A stretch of 37,615 nucleotides of DNA from a virus (lineage: Duplodnaviria; Heunggongvirae; Uroviricota; Caudoviricetes), in IMG/VR virus record IMGVR_UViG_2721755720_000002, positions 1 through 37,615 of that record. One strand, given 5' to 3'. A program made the translations under genes and the position numbers. A model generated the notes under the pieces. The model was not told where the DNA came from, ran no database searches, and worked only from the letters and a program-made list of their open reading frames with translations. Below, piece by piece: positions 3,711 to 37,615 of this stretch (its first letter is position 1; the number at the start of each line of letters is the position of its first letter).

Positions 3711-4259
3711 TTATTTAGCTAACTTTTTCCAGATCGCTGAAACGTATTTGGCTTGGTGAATGGCATCATCAAGCGCGTTGTGGCGAGTTCCTTTGAATGG
3801 CATATCTCGCTTAGGGTCGAATCCTATTACCTTCCCAAGTTCGACGATTGTTCTTACGTCGCGGTCATTCCACCACTTCCACGGAACTGGCTGCCCTGTC
3901 AGCGAATAACTGTTTCGGAGAATAACGCAGTCAAATGATGCTCCATTCCCCCAAACCTGAACGAATTTGTGGTTAGCGTTCTTTATGATGAATTCAGATA
4001 ACCATGAAAGAGCCGTTGAAAGCTCCTGAGTGTTGCTGGTTAGCGATTTTCTGGCTTCTTCACTCTGTTCCAGCCACCATAAAATCGTTGAAGCGTCAGG
4101 ACGCGCTCGATATCGCATTGATGATTCAAGCGAGATATTTACCGAGAACTCTTCTCCTGTTTCTCCGGTATTCGGGTCAAAGAATACCGCCCCAATAGAA
4201 ATAACTGGCGCGTATGGCCCGTTGCCCATTGTTTCAAGGTCAACCATCAAGTGATTCAT
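3711..4259 (-). CDS. DnaQ-like (DEDDh) 3'-5' exonuclease
   Basis: 182 aa; MVDLETMG and HNALDDA motifs typical of DEDD exonucleases; AAGGA Shine-Dalgarno; lies next to SSB and the annealing protein. Confidence 0.7.
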   Translation of the reverse strand: MNHLMVDLETMGNGPYAPVISIGAVFFDPNTGETGEEFSVNISLESSMRYRARPDASTILWWLEQSEEARKSLTSNTQELSTALSWLSEFIIKNANHKFVQVWGNGASFDCVILRNSYSLTGQPVPWKWWNDRDVRTIVELGKVIGFDPKRDMPFKGTRHNALDDAIHQAKYVSAIWKKLAK

Positions 4260-5991: not shown

Positions 5992-6303
5992 TTAGGCGGC
6001 TGATGTTTCTTCTTTCAGGCTTTCGAGATATTTACGTGGGTCGTCGCAACATTGGCATTCGCTGTACCAATCCACCCAGCGATCAGTAAGCCCCATATCT
6101 GATAAATCTTCATCGGTAAGGCTCTCATCCCACATCTCAAGGCCGTTAGCATTGCAGTAATCAGGCTTGATGTTGTTGTCATACTGAAAGGCGTCATAAT
6201 CAGCCAGTGCGTCCATCAGGCGAACACCCTCTTCAACACTTGCCACTTCTACAATGAACGGCTTCATAGGTACTTGCGGGATATGCCAGACACGTAATTT
6301 CAT
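5992..6303 (-). CDS. acidic hypothetical early protein with ECQCC motif (103 aa)
   Basis: GGAGGA Shine-Dalgarno before ATG at 6303; highly Asp/Glu-rich product. Confidence 0.5.
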   Translation of the reverse strand: MKLRVWHIPQVPMKPFIVEVASVEEGVRLMDALADYDAFQYDNNIKPDYCNANGLEMWDESLTDEDLSDMGLTDRWVDWYSECQCCDDPRKYLESLKEETSAA

Positions 6304-7553: not shown

Positions 7554-8906
<1,353 letters not shown>

Positions 8907-17270: not shown

Positions 17271-17792
17271 ATGAATATCGTGCCACTTAATTACAAAGGT
17301 GAAATTGTCAGTTTCAACACTGATGGTTGGATCAACGTCACAGGTGTTGCTGAGAGATTTGGGAAACGCATTGATAACTGGATGCGTTTGGCAGAAACGC
17401 TTGAATACGTTCGTGCTTTAGACGAAGCGTTGACCGGGAAAGAATCTCAAATTTTACATCCCTCACAATCGAGGTATGTAAAAACCAGCAAGGCACGAAA
17501 GGACAGGGGTGGTGGTACGTGGCTACATCCAAAACTTTCAGTTGCATTTGCCCGTTGGTGTGATGCTCGTTTTGCTGTGTGGTGCGACCTGCACATTGAT
17601 AGTCTGCTTCGCGGTGAACTGACTGAGCAGCAGAAATATGAGCAAGCATGTCGCATTCGCGATGACCGGAAATCAAAAGCCAGCAATGGGGCAAGAGAGA
17701 TGGCTCGCTGGCGATGGGATAAGCCGGTTATTGAAGCAAATGTTGAGTACTGGCGCGAGCAACTGCAGTTGACTCTCGATATCGCGTGCTGA
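17271..17792 (+). CDS. KilA-N domain protein (173 aa)
   Basis: N-terminus MNIVPLNYKGEIVSFNTDGWINVTGVAERFGKRIDNWMRL resembles the KilA-N domain; two terminators upstream and about 350 bp of non-coding DNA downstream. Confidence 0.6.
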   Translation: MNIVPLNYKGEIVSFNTDGWINVTGVAERFGKRIDNWMRLAETLEYVRALDEALTGKESQILHPSQSRYVKTSKARKDRGGGTWLHPKLSVAFARWCDARFAVWCDLHIDSLLRGELTEQQKYEQACRIRDDRKSKASNGAREMARWRWDKPVIEANVEYWREQLQLTLDIAC

Positions 17793-28701: not shown

Positions 28702-30096
28702 TTGGCTACATGGCAACAGGCTGGTAATTCAGGTGCGCTTCTTGCCGGGTTAGGCGGCATGAACTCCAACGCTCCAAGAGCAAGTGATGCAGACGCCACG
28801 CTTGCATACATTCGACAGAATAACGAGATGGAGCGTTCAGGACGTAATAACGTTGGCTTGCAGGCTTTGCAGGGCATTTCATCTGTCATGGATATGTATA
28901 AGCAGATGGATCAGCAGAAGCGGCAGCAAGAGTTTCAGCAGGCTTATGCTGATGCATATACATCTGGTGACCGCGATGCAATGCGAAAGCTGGCATCACA
29001 GTATCCTGAGCAGTTTGACGCTGTAAGAAACGGCATGAAATTTGTCGATGAAGACCAGCGTTCCACTGTCGGTACACTGGCAGCAAGTGCCAGACTCGCA
29101 GCTTCATCTCCAGAAGCCATGATGTCATGGTTGCAGAACAACTCATCTGAGCTTACTCGTGCCGGAGTAGACCCTCTGGATGTGGCGAAAATGTATCAGC
29201 AAAATCCACAAGGTTTCACAGAGTTTGTTGATCACCTTGGAATGGCTGCACTTGGTCCAGAACAATATTTTCAGGCGCAAGACAGAATCGTTGGGCGTGA
29301 GATTGATCGCGGAAAACTTGCAGAGACAATCCGCAGCAATCAGGCTGGCGAGGCGCTAACAGCACGAGGTCAGAACATCACGATGCGCGGTCAGGATTTA
29401 TCTGCTTCTACTGCGCGACGCGGGCAGGATTTGGCAATGCAGCGAGCGTCAACAAGAGGAACCGCTGGGAATGATGAGCGTACAGTTCAGTTATCAGATG
29501 GCAGAACTGTAACGGTTGGCGGGAAACTTCACGGAGCTGGGGCAAATGCGTTCTACGAAGGCATCGACAACGAGGGGAATATGGTTCGCGTTCCTGCCAG
29601 TTCAATCGCAGCGCCTGCAACATCGTCTGCATCAGCACAAAACTATGCCATGAAGAAGGATATCGACGCGATCGCAAATGCAGACGCTTCTGCTCTCGAT
29701 TTCATGACAGGAATGACCGGAGGCGCAGGTAACCCGGCAATTGGTGCTGATGTTCGCAGCCGATTAACAGGAAAAGAGCAGCGCCAGTTATATAACTCAG
29801 CACAACGTATTCAGGGCAGAATGCAGAATCAGGGTGTGGCGGCAGCAAGGGACATGGGGGCCAGTGGTATTAACACCGTTGCAGAAGCGAAGATGTATTT
29901 TCAGGGGATGCCGCAGGTTGACTATTCAAGCCCGGAGGCTATGCAGCAGTCGATTCGCGAGATTCAGGAATACACCAACAATTACAACCAACAATATAAC
30001 GTTAATGTTGGTAAATCTCAGCGGCAGCAATCTCAACCTGCACAGGTATCACAGCCAGCAGCCAGCAGTAACTTTTCTTCACTATGGGGTGATTAA
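28702..30096 (+). CDS. ejection protein (P22 gp20-like; probable TTG start)
   Basis: 464 aa; GGAGG 6 nt upstream of TTG at 28702; size and position match gp20. Confidence 0.6.
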
Positions 30097-32093
30097 TGGC
30101 TAAAGCATGGAAAGATGTTATCGCCTCTCCACAGTATCAGGCGTTAGCACCAGAACAAAAAGCGCAGGCTCAGGAGCAATACTTCAATGAAGTCGTGGCC
30201 CCGCAAGCCGGAGAAAATGCAGAGCAGGCTAAGCAAGCTTTCTATGCTGCCTATCCATTGCCATCTGTGCAGCCAGTGGATACACAGCAACCAGTAGCAC
30301 AGCAACAACCACAGCAAAGTGGATTTATGTCTGATCTTGGCGAAGCAGTAAAAGAGACTGGTCGCGGACTGGTGCAGGCTGGCGTGAACGTGGCAAACAT
30401 ACCTGCATCAGTTGCAGATGCTGTAACAAGCGCGGCGGCATGGGCTGGCGGTAAACTCGGTATTGGCGATGGTACATATCAGCCAGCGCCACGAGTAACA
30501 ACGCAGGGATTAGAGCAGGACTTTGGCCTTCAGCAAGGCGCGCTGACTCCACAAACGACAGAGGGAAGGGTATTTGCTGAAGCATTGCCTTACCTCACTC
30601 CTGCTGGCGTTGAGAGAGCGGCGGTACAGGCACCAACACTTGCTGGTCGAATTGCTCAGGGGGCAACTCGCCTTCTAGCAGAAAACGCAGTTGGATCACT
30701 TGCTGCAAATAGTGCGAAAGATGATGCGGAAGCACTCGCCACCGATTTAGGCGTTGGTGTACTTGCTGGCGGTGCTATTAACGCTGCCGGACGTGGATTA
30801 GGTGCTGCTTATCGTGGCGTTCGTGGTGCTATCGCGCCAGAAGCGCAGCAGGCTATCAGATTTGCAGAGCGTGAAGGAGTTCCTCTGCACACCACAGACC
30901 TGTTACAGCCTACTTCCCGCGTCGGGAAATTGGCGCAGACGACAGCGGAAAATATCCCCCTAGCTGGCACAAGCGGAATGAGAGCAACGCAACAGGAAGC
31001 GAGAAGCCAGTTGGTGCAGAGATTTGCTGATAAATTCGGTGAGTATGATCCAGCTGTTGTTATTGACAGCCTTAAAGCGAAAACATCAGGAATTCGTCGT
31101 GCTGCAGGGAACCGTCTTGAGCAGGTTCAGAATGCTATGGCTGGAGTAAACATTCAGCCTGCGCGAGCAATTCAGCAGATTGATACAGAATTATCTAACC
31201 TGCAGAAGCTTGGTAAGGTTGCTGATAACGAGACAATTTCAAAACTTCAGTCATATCGTGATGAGCTTGTTCGCAATGCTGGCCCTGATGGTCCGGTAAA
31301 TCTGGATTTGAAGCAATTAAGCGACCTGCGCAGCCAGTTCAGAATGGACGTGAAGGGTGAGCGACCAGTGTTACCAAACCGTTCCGATGCTGCCATTCAG
31401 CGCGTTTACAAGGCAATGACTGACGATATCAATGGTGCCATTGGTCAGAATCTTGGCAACGATACTCTCCGTAAATATCAGCAGGCCAATGCCGTCTACG
31501 CTGACGAAGCGGCGAAACTAAAGAATACCAGGCTGAAGAATGTTCTCATGAAAGGCGACCTGACGCCGGAAGTTGTCAACAACATGCTATTCAGCAAGAA
31601 CAAATCGGAAATTAAGACGCTGTATAACTCAGTTGGTCGTGTTGGCAGGGCGCAAATGCGCAATGGCATCATTGGAAAGGCGATGGAGAAATCTGGCGGA
31701 TCCCCTGACCAGTTCCTTCGGCAGCTTAACATCCTGCAAAACCAGACTGGCATCACATTTAAGGGGCAGGACGCTGCTTATCTGAAAGGATTAAAAAACT
31801 ATCTGCAATCCACGCAGCAGGCTGCAAAAGCGGCAGTAACAACACCCACAGGGCAGCAAACTATCCCGTTCATTATTGGGTATGGGACGGCAATGAACCC
31901 GGCGACAACTGGCGCAGCAGTAAGCTACGGACTTCTTACTCGCGCCTATGAGAGCGAGCTATTCAGAAATGCAATGCTCCGAATGGCAAACTCCCCACGC
32001 GGATCAACAGCGTTCGAGAAAGCCATGCAGCAGGCACAAAAGGCCATTAACGCCCTGACTCAGGGGGCTAAGTCTGATGCGCTGTCAGAATAG
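30096..32093 (+). CDS. ejection protein (P22 gp16-like)
   Basis: 665 aa; last gene of the ejection series, before the immI-like region. Confidence 0.6.
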   Translation: MAKAWKDVIASPQYQALAPEQKAQAQEQYFNEVVAPQAGENAEQAKQAFYAAYPLPSVQPVDTQQPVAQQQPQQSGFMSDLGEAVKETGRGLVQAGVNVANIPASVADAVTSAAAWAGGKLGIGDGTYQPAPRVTTQGLEQDFGLQQGALTPQTTEGRVFAEALPYLTPAGVERAAVQAPTLAGRIAQGATRLLAENAVGSLAANSAKDDAEALATDLGVGVLAGGAINAAGRGLGAAYRGVRGAIAPEAQQAIRFAEREGVPLHTTDLLQPTSRVGKLAQTTAENIPLAGTSGMRATQQEARSQLVQRFADKFGEYDPAVVIDSLKAKTSGIRRAAGNRLEQVQNAMAGVNIQPARAIQQIDTELSNLQKLGKVADNETISKLQSYRDELVRNAGPDGPVNLDLKQLSDLRSQFRMDVKGERPVLPNRSDAAIQRVYKAMTDDINGAIGQNLGNDTLRKYQQANAVYADEAAKLKNTRLKNVLMKGDLTPEVVNNMLFSKNKSEIKTLYNSVGRVGRAQMRNGIIGKAMEKSGGSPDQFLRQLNILQNQTGITFKGQDAAYLKGLKNYLQSTQQAAKAAVTTPTGQQTIPFIIGYGTAMNPATTGAAVSYGLLTRAYESELFRNAMLRMANSPRGSTAFEKAMQQAQKAINALTQGAKSDALSE

Positions 32094-32182
32094 CTTCGCA
32101 AATACCAGGAACGTGCAAAAACCAAATATGTAGAACGCAATATTCAGCATATCTCTGTGCATAAATCCTCCGTAACGGATGG

Positions 32183-32443
32183 TTATCTGCTGTCTTTTTT
32201 ATATAGCTTCTTGAGCGTATCAAAGACAATTTTCTTAACCATATCAGATTGTTGTTCTGCCATACGCTCTGCATCGTCAATGTAAACTGATGCAGAGCTT
32301 TGTTTATCCAATGATTCCTCAATCGCTGCAATTATCTCTGAGTTCAGCGATCTGTTATTCATCTTCGCACGCTGTTTAATCTTCGCGTGGAGTTCATGCG
32401 GAAGTCTCAAGTGAAACTGCGCCTCGTCGTATTTGCTGTACAT
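32183..32443 (-). CDS. mnt: Mnt-like ribbon-helix-helix repressor (86 aa)
   Basis: ATG at 32443; FHLRLPHELHAKIKQRAKMNNRSLNSEIIAAIEESL plus ...DMVKKIVFDTLKKLYKK parallel P22 Mnt as recalled. Confidence 0.7.
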   Translation of the reverse strand: MYSKYDEAQFHLRLPHELHAKIKQRAKMNNRSLNSEIIAAIEESLDKQSSASVYIDDAERMAEQQSDMVKKIVFDTLKKLYKKDSR

Positions 32444-32499
32444 CCTTGATGCCTCACCAGTTGGGTGGAATGGCATCGTAACCTACTGGATAAATACTC

Positions 32500-32540
32500 A
32501 ATAGTACCATTTCGGTATGCAATCACATCATGGTTGCATC
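32500..32540. promoter_or_regulatory. candidate operator and divergent promoter region between mnt and the tailspike
   Basis: Imperfect inverted repeats TACC-ATTTC-GGTA and ATGCAA...TTGCAT within the 120-bp intergenic region. Confidence 0.3.
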
Positions 32541-32564
32541 ATATCATTCGTCTGGAGCAATGAA

Positions 32565-34976
32565 ATGTCAGATATCACCGCAAATGTTGTGGTAAGCATG
32601 CCTTCGCAACTCTTCACTATGGCGCGTTCTTTTAAAGCCGTAGCCAATGGCAAAATTTATATCGGTAAAATTGATACTGACCCTGTAAATCCTGAAAACC
32701 AGATTCAGGTTTATGTGGAGAACGAAGACGGTTCTCACGTTCCTGTTTCTCAACCAATCATCATTAACGCTGCTGGTTACCCGGTATATAACGGACAGAT
32801 TGCCAAATTCGTAACTATGCAAGGCCATTCTATGGCTGTATATGATGCGTACGGTTCTCAGCAATTCAATTACCCAAACGTTCTTAAATACGACCCTGAC
32901 CAGTTGCGTCAGGAGCTTGGCGGTTACGATGGCGCAAAGGTCATCGGTGAGTGTCCAGACATCGAAACGCTAAGGACTATTGAGCCACAGGAAAACAGTC
33001 AGCGCATTATCGTCCGCCATCACACCCTTAATTCTGGTTACGGTGGTGGTCAGTTCCGTTCCCGCCTTGATGGTTCATCGTACACAGATAACAATGGCAC
33101 GGTCATCAAGACTACGGGTGGCGCAGTGTGGCTGCGTATCAATGCCGATATTATAAACCCTCTGATGTTCGGCGCGATCCCAGACGGTGTTACTGATTGT
33201 TCAAGTGCGTTCACTAATGCACTTTCGGCTGGTAGCATTGTTGTTCCTGACGGTGAATTCAAAATATCAAACGTGCAGGTTCCCACTAAAACAAGCATTC
33301 GTGGTAACGGGTACAAATCTAAAATCGTTGTTCCTACAGGCCAGGCATCGTTCCTAGTTGGGAATTCCTCTGCGGCTACAACAATAGATTATTTCGATGG
33401 TTGTAATATTTCTGATTTGCATATTTGGTCTGATTCAGTAGCGGCTGGCACCATTGGGATAATCACGAACGGAATTAGCTCTTCAAGATTTGAAAACATT
33501 GTTTATACCAAAACAAACATTGTTATTCGTCAGGACCATGCGGAAGGCTGTACTTTCAGAAATATCAGTAACTCTGATTTGGAAAATGGTGATACTGACC
33601 CTGTGTTTGTGATTTTTTCTCAGATAAATAAACGTTCAAATGATAATTCATATTTAAACTTTGTAGCGAGAAGTAGTGATACAGAGATTTATTTAGGAAT
33701 GGTAGGTGGTGGTGACGTAACTGTGGCACAGCACGATGGCATCACTATCGAAGACTGCATTCTGTTTCCGTGTCAGAAGGATAACATTTATGTTGCAAAC
33801 GGAAGGATGGGTAGGATCTCAAATAATGAGTTGTTTGTAGCTGGAAGAAATGGAATTCGCATAGACGCAGTTGTAACAAACATGTCAATTACAGGGAATA
33901 ATATTCCTTGGTCTGGAAGATTTACTGCAGGCGGGGCTGATGCAATACTGGTGCAAACAGTGGCTGGTAGCGCTTCTTCCGCAGTTGGACAGGTGGATAT
34001 TAGCAATAACATCATCAGTATGCCTTCTGGCTGCGGAATGAGGGTTGCTGGGATTGGTCAAGTAACTATTACTAATAACACTATTGTCTCTCCAAATAAC
34101 ATTAAAACAACAGTGACTGGACCATTCACTGCTAAGCAATATGACGGAATAAGGATTAACGGAGCTTGCGGATATATATTTGTATCTGATAACCATGTCA
34201 CCACAGGAAGACACGGTCAGGGCGGTGATGATTTCTCAACGAACTGGAGATATGATGTTTTTGTTGAGTCTACCGTCATAAATGGAGTTGTTAAGCATCC
34301 TGGAATAAATGTTTTAAATCTTTCGCCTTACATTGATGTACAACTCCCTATAACTAGATATATTCAGGGTCGACATCAGACTCTATACAAGGAGGTTAAC
34401 AGTCCGTACGCAACAACTAACTGGAGGGTTGCCTCAGGAACGGGAACCATATCAGCAGTATCTGCAACTAATCCATACTCTGGGGAGTTAACAAATACCG
34501 TATTGCAGTTTGTAAACACATCCGGAACTTCAATTTTCTCAAGAGGAGAAAATACCACAACTGCGGGTGACCCAATTGGCGCTGTTTTTAAGGTTAGGTG
34601 CACATCTCCGACATCCGCTTATGTTACGTTCAGTATTGTAGTTGGCGGTTCGGTCTTTGTTCAGAGAAGCATAATGGTAGGTGCAGGGTGGGGTGAGATA
34701 GACATGCGCAGACTGGGAGCGCCTGCAGGGGTTGTTGCTTTTCAGGTTTCAATATCAGATATATGCACCATACAAATAGCCGAAGTTAGGGTGACCAAGA
34801 CCACAGAAGCGCCCCAATTATCAGGTACATATTATGGAACATCAATCCCTACATCCGGCTACTATAAGGTTGGAGATATAGTTAAAAACTCAGTCCCAAC
34901 ACCTGGATCTCCGAGAGGCTGGGTGTGCACAGCGTCAGGGACTCCAGGATCATGGGTATCAGAAGGAAATCTGTGA
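32565..34976 (+). CDS. tailspike: P22-type head-binding N-domain fused to a divergent beta-helix receptor-binding domain (803 aa)
   Basis: GGAG Shine-Dalgarno then ATG at 32565; [56 protein letters not shown] matches the P22 gp9 N-terminus; remainder has beta-helix-like repeats and is AT-richer. Confidence 0.85.
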
Positions 34977-35001: not shown

Positions 35002-36123
35002 TTATTTTGGAAGATTAGTAAACCAAGGGATTGTCATTGCCTGGCGTTCAACCGCAGTGACTATTACCAGATCAGGTTTATAGGTACCAATTATGCGCGT
35101 CATAATTTCAGGTGTCGCCATAACAGCCTGATAATGCTGCTGGAATATGTTGGAGAAGGTAGCGTTCATGAACGGTTCCATTCCATCACCAAATGAATCA
35201 CGTAACCACAAGACCTTCATTGAGTTAAGTGCAGTTTCATTCCTGGTTTCCTGAGGAACATTACGATGTATGGTAGAGTTATCAATCGGTAACACTTTTT
35301 TGAATGCCCCATACCAGTCATAAACCTTGACAGTCTTTGCACCAGGTACTTTTGCAGTGTACTCAACATCTATTAGAGAGTCCTGAAGGCGAAGGAATCT
35401 ACTAAGGTCACCACCATTTCGTGATGATGCTGAAATATCAACGTCTTTATCGGTGAGCCATTTTATATTAGGTACTTGTTGAGAAATTCTATGCGAAATC
35501 TCCTTGTAACCGGCCCATGCACCTCTTTTGTTCCAGTGGGTATCGGTTTTATAATATAGAGGGCCATTATTCTTCAAGTTATCAAAAGACGCACCCATAT
35601 TGATGAAGGTGTGATCGCCTTTTGCTGAAGACAAGAGGTATTGAGTGTTTCTGCTACCGCCATTTTCGATAAGCCATTTTGGCGAAAACTCGGGGTAAAC
35701 TGTATGTTTATCTGGAGCAAAGCTTACAAAGTATCCCTTGCCGCCATAACTTTTGACGTAACTATCCCAGGCAATCCTTGCTTTAGCCATTTTGTCTATC
35801 TGCGGCCTGATATCCTTTGTAAGATTCCTCTTTTCTGAAAGAGTGTTTGAATATTTATCACCAAGGAACAGCCATCCATTTTTACCAACTATGGTCTCTT
35901 CAGGATAAAGAGATATCCCAACTTTATATAGCACACCAGACAGAGGCGGGATTGCAGAGTCAAGGTTATACAGACCATCAACGTTAAACCAATCAGTAAC
36001 ATCAGTTTTAGAGAAGTCAATAATTTTCGCACCATTAATAGCACCATCTTTAACATTTACCAACGGCGCTATCATTAAAAGAGCGAGTGAACTCACAGCA
36101 AAACTACAGATGTATTTTTTCAC
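35002..36123 (-). CDS. AlgJ/AlgX-like SGNH-type periplasmic O-acetyltransferase partner with N-terminal signal anchor (373 aa from GTG; ATG at 36162 possible)
   Basis: GAGGAG then 6 nt then GTG at 36123; hydrophobic N-terminus ICSFAVSSLALLMIAPLV; YYKTDTHWNKRG motif resembling the AlgJ/AlgX catalytic D-x-H-W; LRDSFG downstream; overlaps the MBOAT stop. Confidence 0.6.
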   Translation of the reverse strand: MKKYICSFAVSSLALLMIAPLVNVKDGAINGAKIIDFSKTDVTDWFNVDGLYNLDSAIPPLSGVLYKVGISLYPEETIVGKNGWLFLGDKYSNTLSEKRNLTKDIRPQIDKMAKARIAWDSYVKSYGGKGYFVSFAPDKHTVYPEFSPKWLIENGGSRNTQYLLSSAKGDHTFINMGASFDNLKNNGPLYYKTDTHWNKRGAWAGYKEISHRISQQVPNIKWLTDKDVDISASSRNGGDLSRFLRLQDSLIDVEYTAKVPGAKTVKVYDWYGAFKKVLPIDNSTIHRNVPQETRNETALNSMKVLWLRDSFGDGMEPFMNATFSNIFQQHYQAVMATPEIMTRIIGTYKPDLVIVTAVERQAMTIPWFTNLPK

Positions 36124-36133
36124 GACTCGCTCC

Positions 36134-37615
36134 TCAGAAATTAAAATACAGGAAAACTGCATTTGTGGATTTTATGGTTGCATACACGGCAGTTACAAAA
36201 AGAACAACCATACATATTGTTTTAATACCATAAGACCCCTTGGCGATGGTCATTTCGTATGAGTTTTTTAATGGGGTGATTATGAAACCAATTAATATCA
36301 ACGAATAGCAAAGGAAGTTCTCAACAATTCCAACGGGAAGGAATGTTGATAATTTATCTGTAAATACGCCACCCCATGCCAGCATGTCAGTTGGAGCATT
36401 CTGAATGGATAGTGCACTTACTGAACCAATGTCAATCATTCCTCGCAGGATACGCATGGCATCGCCTACAGAATGAGCACGGAAGAAAACCCACGCAACG
36501 TTAACAAACATAAATGTAATAAACCATGCCAGAACCGAAGGTAGCGAGAACCCTCTACGCTTCCACCATCGGTGGATGACAAGAGCGCCACCATGCAGCA
36601 CGCCCCATATGATAAACATCCAACTTGCACCGTGCCACAGCCCACCCAGAACGAACGTAGCAAACAGATTAAAATACACCCTGGCGCTGGAACATCGGTT
36701 CCCACCCAAAGGGATGTATATATAATCGCGAAGATAGCGACCAAGGGTTATGTGCCATCTGCGCCAAAAGTCCTGTATATCAAAAGATTTGTATGGTGAA
36801 TTGAAGTTTAGAGGGAGCCATATGTTAAAGAGAAGCGCGGCCCCGATCGCCATGTCACAGTAACCACTAAAATCAAAATAAAGTTGAAATGTGTAAGAAA
36901 GACTGGCGGCCCATGAGCTAAAGAAATCATGCTGCGCCCCAGGTGCAAACCCTGCATCTGCGAACACTGCAAAGTTATCCGCGATAACAACCTTCTTGAA
37001 TAACCCAACACTGAAGATAAACAACCCCATAAAAATATTTCTGTATCTTATAGCGCAATTCCACTTAGACTGGAACTGGGTCATCATCTCTTTATGGTGA
37101 AGTATTGGCCCTGCTATAAGGTGCGGGAAGAATGTTACGAACAATGCATAGTTGACGAAGTCATACTCTTTAGCGCTCCCTCTGTAACTATCAACAAGAA
37201 AAGCCGTTTGGGTAAAAGTATAAAAACTAATACCGAGTGGAAGTATTATGTTCCTAAAAGTAAGCTCATAACCGCTAAGAGCATTGAAATTCTCAATGAA
37301 GAAGTTTGTGTATTTATAATAACCAAGCAAAGACAAATTCACGATAATAGCTATTGTTAAAATTGCCTTACGCGAAAACGGTATTCTGACCCCTTTGACA
37401 TGCGGAGAGACAGCCCCTCCGGCAATGAAGTTGAAAAGGATGGAACCTAACAATAATGGGAGATAGCTCACATCCCAATAGCCATAGAAGAAGAGACTGC
37501 AAGCCACAAGCCAAACCTTTCCAGCGTATACCATTCTGATTTTATTTAAGAAAAAGTACACAAAGAAGGATATAGGCAAAAACAGAAAAATGAATACAGG
37601 AGTACTGAAAAGCAT
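36134..37615 (-). CDS. MBOAT-family membrane-bound O-acyltransferase (AlgI/DltB/PatA-like, 493 aa); start codon is the last three bases of the window
   Basis: Multi-pass membrane protein; N-terminus MLFSTPVFIFLFLPISFFVYFFL; FWRRWHITLGRYLRDYIYIPLGG and LWHGASW motifs carrying the conserved MBOAT His; AT-rich coding region. Confidence 0.85.
   Translation of the reverse strand: MLFSTPVFIFLFLPISFFVYFFLNKIRMVYAGKVWLVACSLFFYGYWDVSYLPLLLGSILFNFIAGGAVSPHVKGVRIPFSRKAILTIAIIVNLSLLGYYKYTNFFIENFNALSGYELTFRNIILPLGISFYTFTQTAFLVDSYRGSAKEYDFVNYALFVTFFPHLIAGPILHHKEMMTQFQSKWNCAIRYRNIFMGLFIFSVGLFKKVVIADNFAVFADAGFAPGAQHDFFSSWAASLSYTFQLYFDFSGYCDMAIGAALLFNIWLPLNFNSPYKSFDIQDFWRRWHITLGRYLRDYIYIPLGGNRCSSARVYFNLFATFVLGGLWHGASWMFIIWGVLHGGALVIHRWWKRRGFSLPSVLAWFITFMFVNVAWVFFRAHSVGDAMRILRGMIDIGSVSALSIQNAPTDMLAWGGVFTDKLSTFLPVGIVENFLCYSLILIGFIITPLKNSYEMTIAKGSYGIKTICMVVLFVTAVYATIKSTNAVFLYFNF

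Follow-up and report, generated by a model that had tools for sequence, protein, structure and literature searches.

Organization of the locus

We focus here on a lone mnt-like repressor gene that is divergent from the tailspike gene in IMG/VR virus record IMGVR_UViG_2721755720_000002 (positions 1 to 37,615; this whole stretch of 37,615 nucleotides is called the window below). Mnt and Arc of phage P22 are textbook models of ribbon-helix-helix DNA recognition, and to our knowledge no function has ever been assigned to the lone Mnt genes of many P22-like phages. According to its list of open reading frames (ORFs) and to Pfam and PHROG annotation, the window holds most of a P22-like (Lederbergvirus-type) prophage. 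Its left part carries the early-left genes, a LexA-like CI repressor (7955-8587), cII, replication genes, nin genes and a Q-type late-gene antiterminator, and its right part carries the lysis genes, terminase, portal, scaffold, coat and ejection proteins, a gene 16 homologue, the mnt ORF, the tailspike and two minus-strand acyltransferase genes. The final late-operon gene ahead of the mnt unit encodes a P22 gene 16-type DNA transfer/ejection protein (30096-32093, plus strand; assigned from annotated relatives and the ORF list). The mnt-like gene (32183-32443, minus strand) converges on it across a gap of 89 base pairs (bp), and on its other side stands the tailspike gene (32565-34976, plus strand), the product of which has a P22-type head-binding domain (Pfam Head_binding, E=1.6e-65) followed by a beta-helix receptor-binding part (Beta_helix). 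The tailspike N-terminus reads MSDITANVV; its Shine-Dalgarno sequence, GGAG (32554-32557), and its start codon, ATG (32565-32567), were read from the sequence, and the start called by PGAP in relatives agrees. Between mnt and the tailspike lies a divergent intergenic region of 121 bp (32444-32564), in keeping with the 120 bp or so given in an earlier note on this DNA.

The ORF flagged in that note (32183-32476, minus strand, 97 amino acids) exists in the ORF list. Translation probably begins at the internal ATG (32443) and yields a protein of 86 amino acids, because a GAGG Shine-Dalgarno sequence (complement of 32452-32455) lies 8 nucleotides (nt) upstream, PGAP calls the 86-residue form (WP_001543869.1, annotated in Escherichia coli no107 and CEC15), and the 11-codon N-terminal extension is missing from diverged relatives (loci L044, L058 and L020). 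The 97-residue start was rejected both on this last ground and because the -10 element of the predicted mnt promoter, Pmnt, overlaps the upstream ATG; with the extension missing in those relatives, the segment 32444-32476 (minus strand) is taken to be the 5' untranslated leader of mnt, Shine-Dalgarno sequence included.

A true Mnt homologue

The description of this gene in the earlier note, as an Mnt-like ribbon-helix-helix gene, is borne out by domain and structure matches. An Arc-type ribbon-helix-helix domain (Pfam PF03869, E=1e-14, exceeding the curated cut-off) is accompanied by the Mnt C-terminal tetramerization domain, Repressor_Mnt (Pfam PF11423, E=8.7e-15; 54.6 bits against a cut-off of 20.9). 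Among known structures, PDB entry 1mnt is matched over residues 3-75 with E=1.2e-18, and 1qey, the tetramerization domain, with E=6e-8. Alignment to P22 Mnt gives 48.8% identity, and the DNA-contacting strand, which reads Q9-F10-H11-L12-R13, is nearly identical to the recognition strand of Arc. The protein is a true homologue of Mnt.

A separate observation concerns the C-terminal domain (32183-32320 in the window; also seen across loci L018-L136), which is mosaic, with at least six unrelated-looking types joined to a nearly invariant N-terminal domain. The junction falls in the linker around SKPSPVSGYRD, so that domain shuffling is seen inside a protein of 86 amino acids.

Absence of the antirepressor partners

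The second claim of the earlier note, that neither arc nor an antirepressor gene lies between mnt and the tailspike, also holds, and the absence extends to the rest of the window. A tblastn search of the entire window with P22 Ant, Arc and SieA gave no match at E<1. Scans of 30 otherwise unassigned ORFs against Pfam and PHROG likewise gave no antirepressor of the Ant, P22AR, Bro or Rha kind. For the sar RNA, there is no Rfam match in the window at the gathering threshold and none in 32000-32700 at E<=1. No second ribbon-helix-helix ORF that might be arc occurs at the locus, where the tailspike directly follows the predicted operator. A 32-amino-acid plus-strand ORF inside the intergenic region is unrelated to arc, and no degraded arc is seen in these 121 bp, similarity to P22 stopping about 2 nt past the operator.

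Elsewhere in the window, the one item with any loose relation to these partners is an ORF with a KilA-N domain (17271-17792, plus strand; Pfam E=8e-22), located between the lysis genes and terminase, which is the place of the rha-like gene in P22. It spans only positions 1-173 of the 273-position PHROG 129 profile and may be truncated. The ORF was considered as a hidden target of Mnt and rejected, as there is no further operator-like site in the window even when 2 mismatches are allowed. In the nin region of a related E. coli prophage a KilAC antirepressor is annotated; in the window it is replaced by NinX-like and unknown ORFs.

Predicted promoters and operator

When the DNA is aligned outward from the mnt start codon, homology between the Pmnt/Pant/Omnt region of P22 and the window is continuous up to the point just past the operator; mnt, Pmnt and operator are precisely what has been kept. 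The predicted Pmnt (32475-32501, minus strand), placed by its homology to the annotated promoter of P22, has TACGAT as its -10 element (32480-32475) where P22 has TATCAT, and TTGAGT as its -35 element (32501-32496) where P22 has TTGAGA. Directly upstream of this -35, in the relation that Omnt has to Pmnt in P22, lies the predicted Mnt operator, AGTACCATTTCGGTATG (32503-32519), which is the positional orthologue of the annotated P22 operator AGGTCCACGGTGGACCT and also aligns with AAGACCACCGTGGTCTT of phage L. Its core, GTACC-N5-GGTAT (32504-32518), contains the inverted repeat TACC-N5-GGTA (32505-32517), and its centre lies some 43-45 bp upstream of the predicted mnt transcription start, again as in the P22 geometry. 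The predicted operator is unique in the window, and GCATCGTA together with the CAA of the -35 is present in the type-B lineages aligned or listed.

On the plus strand, overlapping Pmnt, the orthologue of P22 Pant reads ATGGCA-16-TAAATA and has lost the invariant final T of its -10 element. It looks decayed, and a consensus-based scan of 31900-32800 reported no plus-strand promoter. A promoter-like CTGACA-17-AATGAT on the minus strand (32571-32543) is not conserved beyond the sub-lineage to which the window belongs and was taken as chance.

Comparison across phages brings out three pairs of recognition strand and operator. HFNFR occurs with GGTCCAC-G-GTGGACC in P22 and epsilon34, and QFNLR with AGACCAC-C-GTGGTCT in L, ST64T, ST160 and Gally, in which the operator position reads AAGACCAC(C/A)GTGGTCT(T/C). 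QFHLR occurs with GTACC-N5-GGTA(T/C) in the window, Sf101, E. coli 55989, Salmonella phage VSe13 and JEP4, and the same pairing is found in loci of Escherichia sp., Buttiauxella, Serratia and Citrobacter that were ascertained through the protein; in Buttiauxella the operator is a near-perfect 15-bp palindrome, GTACCATTTTGGTAC. Recognition strand and predicted operator have changed together, giving at least three specificity classes. The specificity of Arc and Mnt is determined by N-terminal residues (Knight and Sauer 1989, as cited in PMC3413123).

The mnt leader contains a further repeat, GATGCC...GGCATC nested around CACC...GGTG (32448-32477), which spans the mnt Shine-Dalgarno sequence and the -10 region. 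Its inner arms, judged by eye, vary compensatorily between lineages (CACC/GGTG, CACTT/AAGTG and GTCC/GGAC); a pair count was abandoned because MAFFT sets the arms of different lineages in different registers. This repeat could limit Mnt translation or stabilize the 5' end of the mRNA.

Selection and distribution

Two samples of relatives were used. IMG/VR was scanned for the operator, which yielded 119 loci, about 112 of them genuine, and a protein-ascertained sample was formed from the best 80 of 520 Mnt relatives in IMG/VR. Every genuine locus of the first sample has an mnt gene with a QFHLRL strand 50-60 nt to the left of the operator and a tailspike start 46-62 nt to its right. About ten of the loci keep only the first five tailspike codons (MSDIT or MTDIT), fused to unrelated sequence, as is also the case in JEP4 (for example, L014, L033, L051 and L059). 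In the protein-ascertained loci the operator is exact in 73 of 77 and a single-base variant in the other 4.

The gene itself is well kept. Nearly all extracted copies (112/114) are at least 83 amino acids long and premature stops occur in only 2 of the 114; in locus L096 mnt has no stop and reads into unrelated sequence within the stretch examined. The DNA-binding core of 40 codons is found in 51 distinct nucleotide versions that encode 16 protein versions. The mean ratio of nonsynonymous to synonymous substitution rates (dN/dS) is 0.075 in the N-terminal domain, with synonymous sites saturated between sub-lineages, and values for mnt range from about 0.04 to 0.14. By this measure of its DNA-binding domain, mnt is under strong purifying selection. 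Promoter hexamers, Shine-Dalgarno sequence and operator are likewise conserved across genera while their flanks diverge. Of 5426 complete E. coli genomes, 242 (about 4.5%) contain 80% or more of the segment 32100-32700, with the gene annotated as "Arc family DNA-binding protein".

These data bear directly on the reading of mnt as a non-functional, decaying leftover of immI, which the earlier note had raised as a remnant and which is one possibility listed by the authors on phage L (PMC8022706). The loss of arc, ant and sar and the decay of Pant agree with it, as do occasional pseudogenes at L055, L098 and Citrobacter L017. In the last of these, the sole clear pseudogene of the diverged genomes, mnt (4001-4252) has a TAG at codon 5 and the left arm of the operator is mutated to GTACT from GTACC, gene and operator appearing to decay together. 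A leftover would, however, hardly combine so low a dN/dS with saturated synonymous divergence, keep its regulatory elements across genera amid diverging flanks, and persist at such a frequency in E. coli with so few interrupted copies. The selection analysis largely refutes this reading, and we give it very little weight.

The longer inverted repeat as a probable tailspike leader hairpin

The earlier note had also pointed to imperfect inverted repeats in the intergenic region as the possible operator. Repeats are indeed present. The most conspicuous, recovered by an inverted-repeat search, is ATGCAATCA-CATCA-TGGTTGCAT (32517-32539, plus strand, with 9-nt arms at 32517-32525 and 32531-32539). 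It ranks first among the inverted repeats of the region, its arms remain complementary in variants, one double change included, and its length is close to that of the annotated 21-bp Arc operator of P22. An operator here nevertheless seems improbable to us. The repeat is restricted to the sub-lineage of the window, Sf101 and IME10, and is missing from 55989, VSe13, JEP4 and other lineages with a nearly identical DNA-binding domain, whereas the element conserved along with that domain is GTACC-N5-GGTAT. The idea of an operator among the intergenic repeats survives in part, with a different sequence predicted for that role.

What the other lineages carry at this position, P22 among them, is a different and unrelated hairpin, CCGTAGCC-N-GCTGCGG and its relatives; in P22 it lies upstream of gene 9 (locus L004, 4657-4685), inside the "boundary sequence" annotated in CUS-3. 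P22-like phages share a conserved hairpin 20-45 nt 5' of the start codon of the tailspike, and that of the window is unrelated in sequence and in the same place. In 16 diverse sequences, 94.6% of the cells of this leader hairpin are paired, against 25-58% when the partner is slid, and the covariation exceeds that in all 500 shuffles. The alternations between G-C and G.U and between C-G and U.G are valid only in plus-strand RNA. Variants of the window type show the same tendency: U.G becomes C-G or U-A, C-G becomes U.G, and one relative has a double compensatory change. We take this to be RNA-type variation, because the same positions would mismatch on the complementary DNA strand, and it lends modest support to an RNA hairpin. 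Single-sequence RNA folding of the intergenic region gave non-significant z-scores of -0.8 to -1.8. On balance, a hairpin in the leader of the tailspike mRNA is a better interpretation of 32517-32539 than an operator, and the hairpin could serve as an mRNA stabilizer or as a processing site.

Separate antirepressor modules and apparent deletion scars

E. coli 55989 (L009) and phage JEP4 (L010) carry a complete second immI upstream, in addition to a QFHLR-type mnt and its operator against the tailspike. The second module consists of an Mnt-like repressor with the strand DRFNIRLP, a good TTGACA promoter, arc and an antirepressor of P22AR/Rha type. Its operator is a perfect palindrome, TTGGTTCTAGAACCAA, and the GTACC-type operator is absent at its ant promoter. 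This double layout, with a second immI and a tailspike-adjacent mnt, recurs in about 20 IMG/VR loci. Locus L104 is the sole one with ant to the right of the operator, in the form of a 3' fragment (P22 Ant residues 191-300) between hairpin and tailspike. The fragment is, to all appearances, a deletion scar and therefore supports an origin by deletion of arc and ant. Together with the base-for-base alignment of Pmnt, Pant and Omnt with P22, it favours the proposal in the earlier note that an immI module had been lost by recombination.

A P22 prophage uses Mnt to silence the antirepressor promoter of superinfecting P22, and the window Mnt might in the same way act in trans on superinfecting relatives that have the same operator, preventing induction by Ant; the resident repressor is of the LexA-like CI type, a plausible target for an antirepressor. 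Such a role would call for the operator to stand at antirepressor promoters. Among the roughly 112 loci with this operator type, not one has it ahead of arc or ant in intact form, the 3' fragment of L104 being the sole ant sequence to its right; where an ant module coexists with it, that module has another repressor and another operator. Taken together, the double layout and L104 therefore argue against QFHLR-type Mnt guarding against antirepressors, and we consider immunity of this kind very unlikely.

P22 itself shows a related feature. At L004 4543-4585, after the ant terminator, the boundary sequence that precedes gene 9 is repeated and is followed by a stretch resembling internal ant codons, GAGCTTGAAGGAGAG. 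The sequences at this position, at L104 and at L206 look like scars of repeated ant-moron deletions.

A probable minimal ant moron and its possible hold on the tailspike

We read the locus, with a probability of roughly 70%, as a minimal P22-like ant moron, that is, a functional Mnt repressor gene with its own promoter and operator, left after recombinational loss of arc, ant and sar. The basis for this is found in the sequence itself: homology, gene order, the absence of the partners, selection, conservation and co-change of the operator, and linkage to the tailspike. The steps that follow, from DNA binding and promoter positions to any effect on the tailspike, are predicted. Mnt would most likely form a tetramer through its C-terminal coiled coil. 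The N-terminal beta-sheet, through Q9, H11 and R13, would bind the palindrome GTACC-N5-GGTAT at 32504-32518, and the bound repressor would most likely regulate its own promoter, Pmnt. Transcription of the tailspike, on the other side, is expected to come from read-through of the late operon, traversing mnt in the antisense direction, because the rightward Pant orthologue is decayed. Mnt, with its one detectable site inside the tailspike leader, is positioned to modulate transcription into the tailspike, and the bound repressor may also meter that transcription. If so, this would explain the tight linkage of mnt and tailspike and would agree with an older proposal on P22 cited in PMC2629481. 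The idea in the earlier note that the repressor was rewired to control the tailspike or its own synthesis is plausible.

Several points weigh against the interpretation as a minimal ant moron with a working repressor. First of all, the predicted Pmnt of the window sub-lineage has a short spacer of 15 nt, against 17 nt in sister lineages, and was missed by the consensus scan. Second, the arms of the palindrome are perfect over only 4-5 bp in the window and are thus weaker than the 7-8 bp of P22 and L. Third, most IMG/VR loci were found via the operator itself, which makes operator conservation in that sample partly circular, and the independent, protein-ascertained sets are either few (5 genomes and about 10 phages) or very close relatives (95-100% identity). 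Finally, a purely self-controlling repressor gives no obvious benefit, and a target or function is therefore probably still missing.

A tentative alternative, to which we grant a minority share, holds that the unit is dedicated to tailspike control, with Mnt and operator acting as a roadblock or insulator that would bar upstream or stray transcription from the tailspike gene in the lysogen and as a tuner of late read-through, or else as repressor of a weak residual rightward promoter. In its favour, loci of several genera and with diverged tailspike N-termini always have the operator 46-62 nt 5' of the tailspike start, and the unit stays next to the tailspike even beside a separate ant module with its own repressor. 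A part for the ant moron of P22 and its repressors in setting tailspike levels has also been suggested (Adams et al. 1985, as cited in PMC2629481). The consensus scan, however, found no rightward promoter, and the Pant orthologue is without its key -10 T. Adjacency to the tailspike would be a trivial outcome of arc-ant deletion as well, and a bound repressor may be no obstacle to late RNA polymerase equipped with the phage late-gene antiterminator. A bolder version appears unlikely to us. It takes the block of mnt, operator and hairpin as an autonomous and widely exchanged tailspike control cassette, unrelated to antirepressor control, in which Mnt from the prophage, bound at the tailspike leader, would block or meter tailspike transcription. 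Were this true, the Mnt of the cassette could also cripple tailspike synthesis in superinfecting relatives with the same operator, which would be a new form of inter-phage exclusion. We retain the minimal ant moron as the preferred reading, with metering of the tailspike as a possible addition to it.

Neighbouring genes

Two recombination junctions flank the tailspike start, and hundreds of matches to E. coli start from 32551, just 5' of the tailspike Shine-Dalgarno sequence. The C-terminal receptor-binding part of the tailspike is matched in just one of the 5426 complete E. coli genomes, that of strain CEC15. Downstream of the tailspike, on the minus strand, lie genes for an AlgX-like SGNH acetyltransferase and an MBOAT O-acyltransferase (35002-36162 and 36134-37615), at a position where P22-like phages usually have gtrABC or oac. 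The DNA of this region matches no phage record, and E. coli CEC15 has the same two genes. They possibly form an unusual two-component cassette for O-acetylation of surface polysaccharide in lysogenic conversion. In the early-left region, a homologue of P22 gp17, which is related to superinfection exclusion (Pfam GP17, E=4e-55), is encoded at 5992-6303 on the minus strand.

Relation to known systems

The interval between gene 16 and gene 9 of P22-like phages has been named the "ant moron" (Villafane 2008, PMC2629481), and ant morons that hold only mnt have already been published for ST64T, ST104, Para1 and phage L (PMC2629481, PMC8022706), with the speculation that such a moron has a new function or is a remnant (Zaworski 2020, PMC8022706). 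We confirmed the mnt-only arrangement in the records of L, ST64T, ST160, Gally, VSe13 and Sf101. The window has this layout too, its mnt lying between the homologues of gene 16 and gene 9, antisense to the late operon, as the only regulator gene. What defines immI of P22, namely, an ant gene under Mnt control, arc with an Arc operator, sar and a strong Pant under the operator, is not found in it. The mnt-only arrangement is thus already described and common, and the options for interpreting it are the same as those published. What is new is the selective maintenance of the gene, the placement of the operator, the co-change of strand and operator, the linkage to the tailspike and the reading of the longer repeat as a hairpin. 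The mnt gene of the window is a new, uncharacterized specificity class of a known kind.

In other respects, the finding is one of ordinary phage mosaicism, and a small, long-standing loose end of P22 biology can now be tested directly. Maintained genes, classes of strand and operator, and linkage to the tailspike beside separate ant modules make the question cheap to test, and the natural pairs of strand and operator should be useful for studying how DNA recognition by beta-sheets evolves. There is also a lesson for genome annotation. RefSeq phage records (for example, those of P22 mnt in NC_002371 and Sf101 gp14 in NC_027398) and PHROG 795 give Mnt homologues the label "partition protein ATPase"; for ribbon-helix-helix repressors of 83-86 amino acids, this label is clearly wrong.

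The closest relatives are Sf101, IME10 and the E. coli prophage with WP_001543869.1, which have essentially the same module (DNA 93-95% and protein 96.5-100% identical). The gene bears the ATPase label in the RefSeq record of Sf101 and is unannotated in IME10, and the Sf101 paper makes no mention of mnt, immunity or antirepressor. With ST64T, ST104, L, ST160 and Para1, the window shares an mnt gene divergent from the tailspike over about 121-135 bp and an operator that is kept while arc and ant are gone. Those phages differ in having QFNLR with AAGACCACCGTGGTCTT, usually one extra small gene between gene 16 and mnt, and a leader hairpin of the bsq type instead of that of the window.

With P22 Mnt and immI, the window shares the protein family, the two-domain architecture, the site between gene 16 and gene 9 and the orientation relative to the late operon, and further the homologous promoter and operator DNA with the operator abutting the -35 of Pmnt. 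It differs in being without arc, ant, sar and sieA and in its decayed Pant orthologue. At the level of recognition, P22 has HFNFR with GGTCCAC-G-GTGGACC, whereas the window has QFHLR with GTACC-N5-GGTAT, and the N-terminal arm of the window protein is two residues longer, which equals the arm length of Arc. P22 Arc, in turn, shares with the window protein the ribbon-helix-helix fold, this arm length and a strand, Q9-F10-N11-L12-R13, that corresponds to Q9-F10-H11-L12-R13 of the window. Arc, on the other hand, has 53 amino acids, is without a tetramerization coiled coil and recognizes another operator, whereas the window protein has the C-terminal domain of Mnt.

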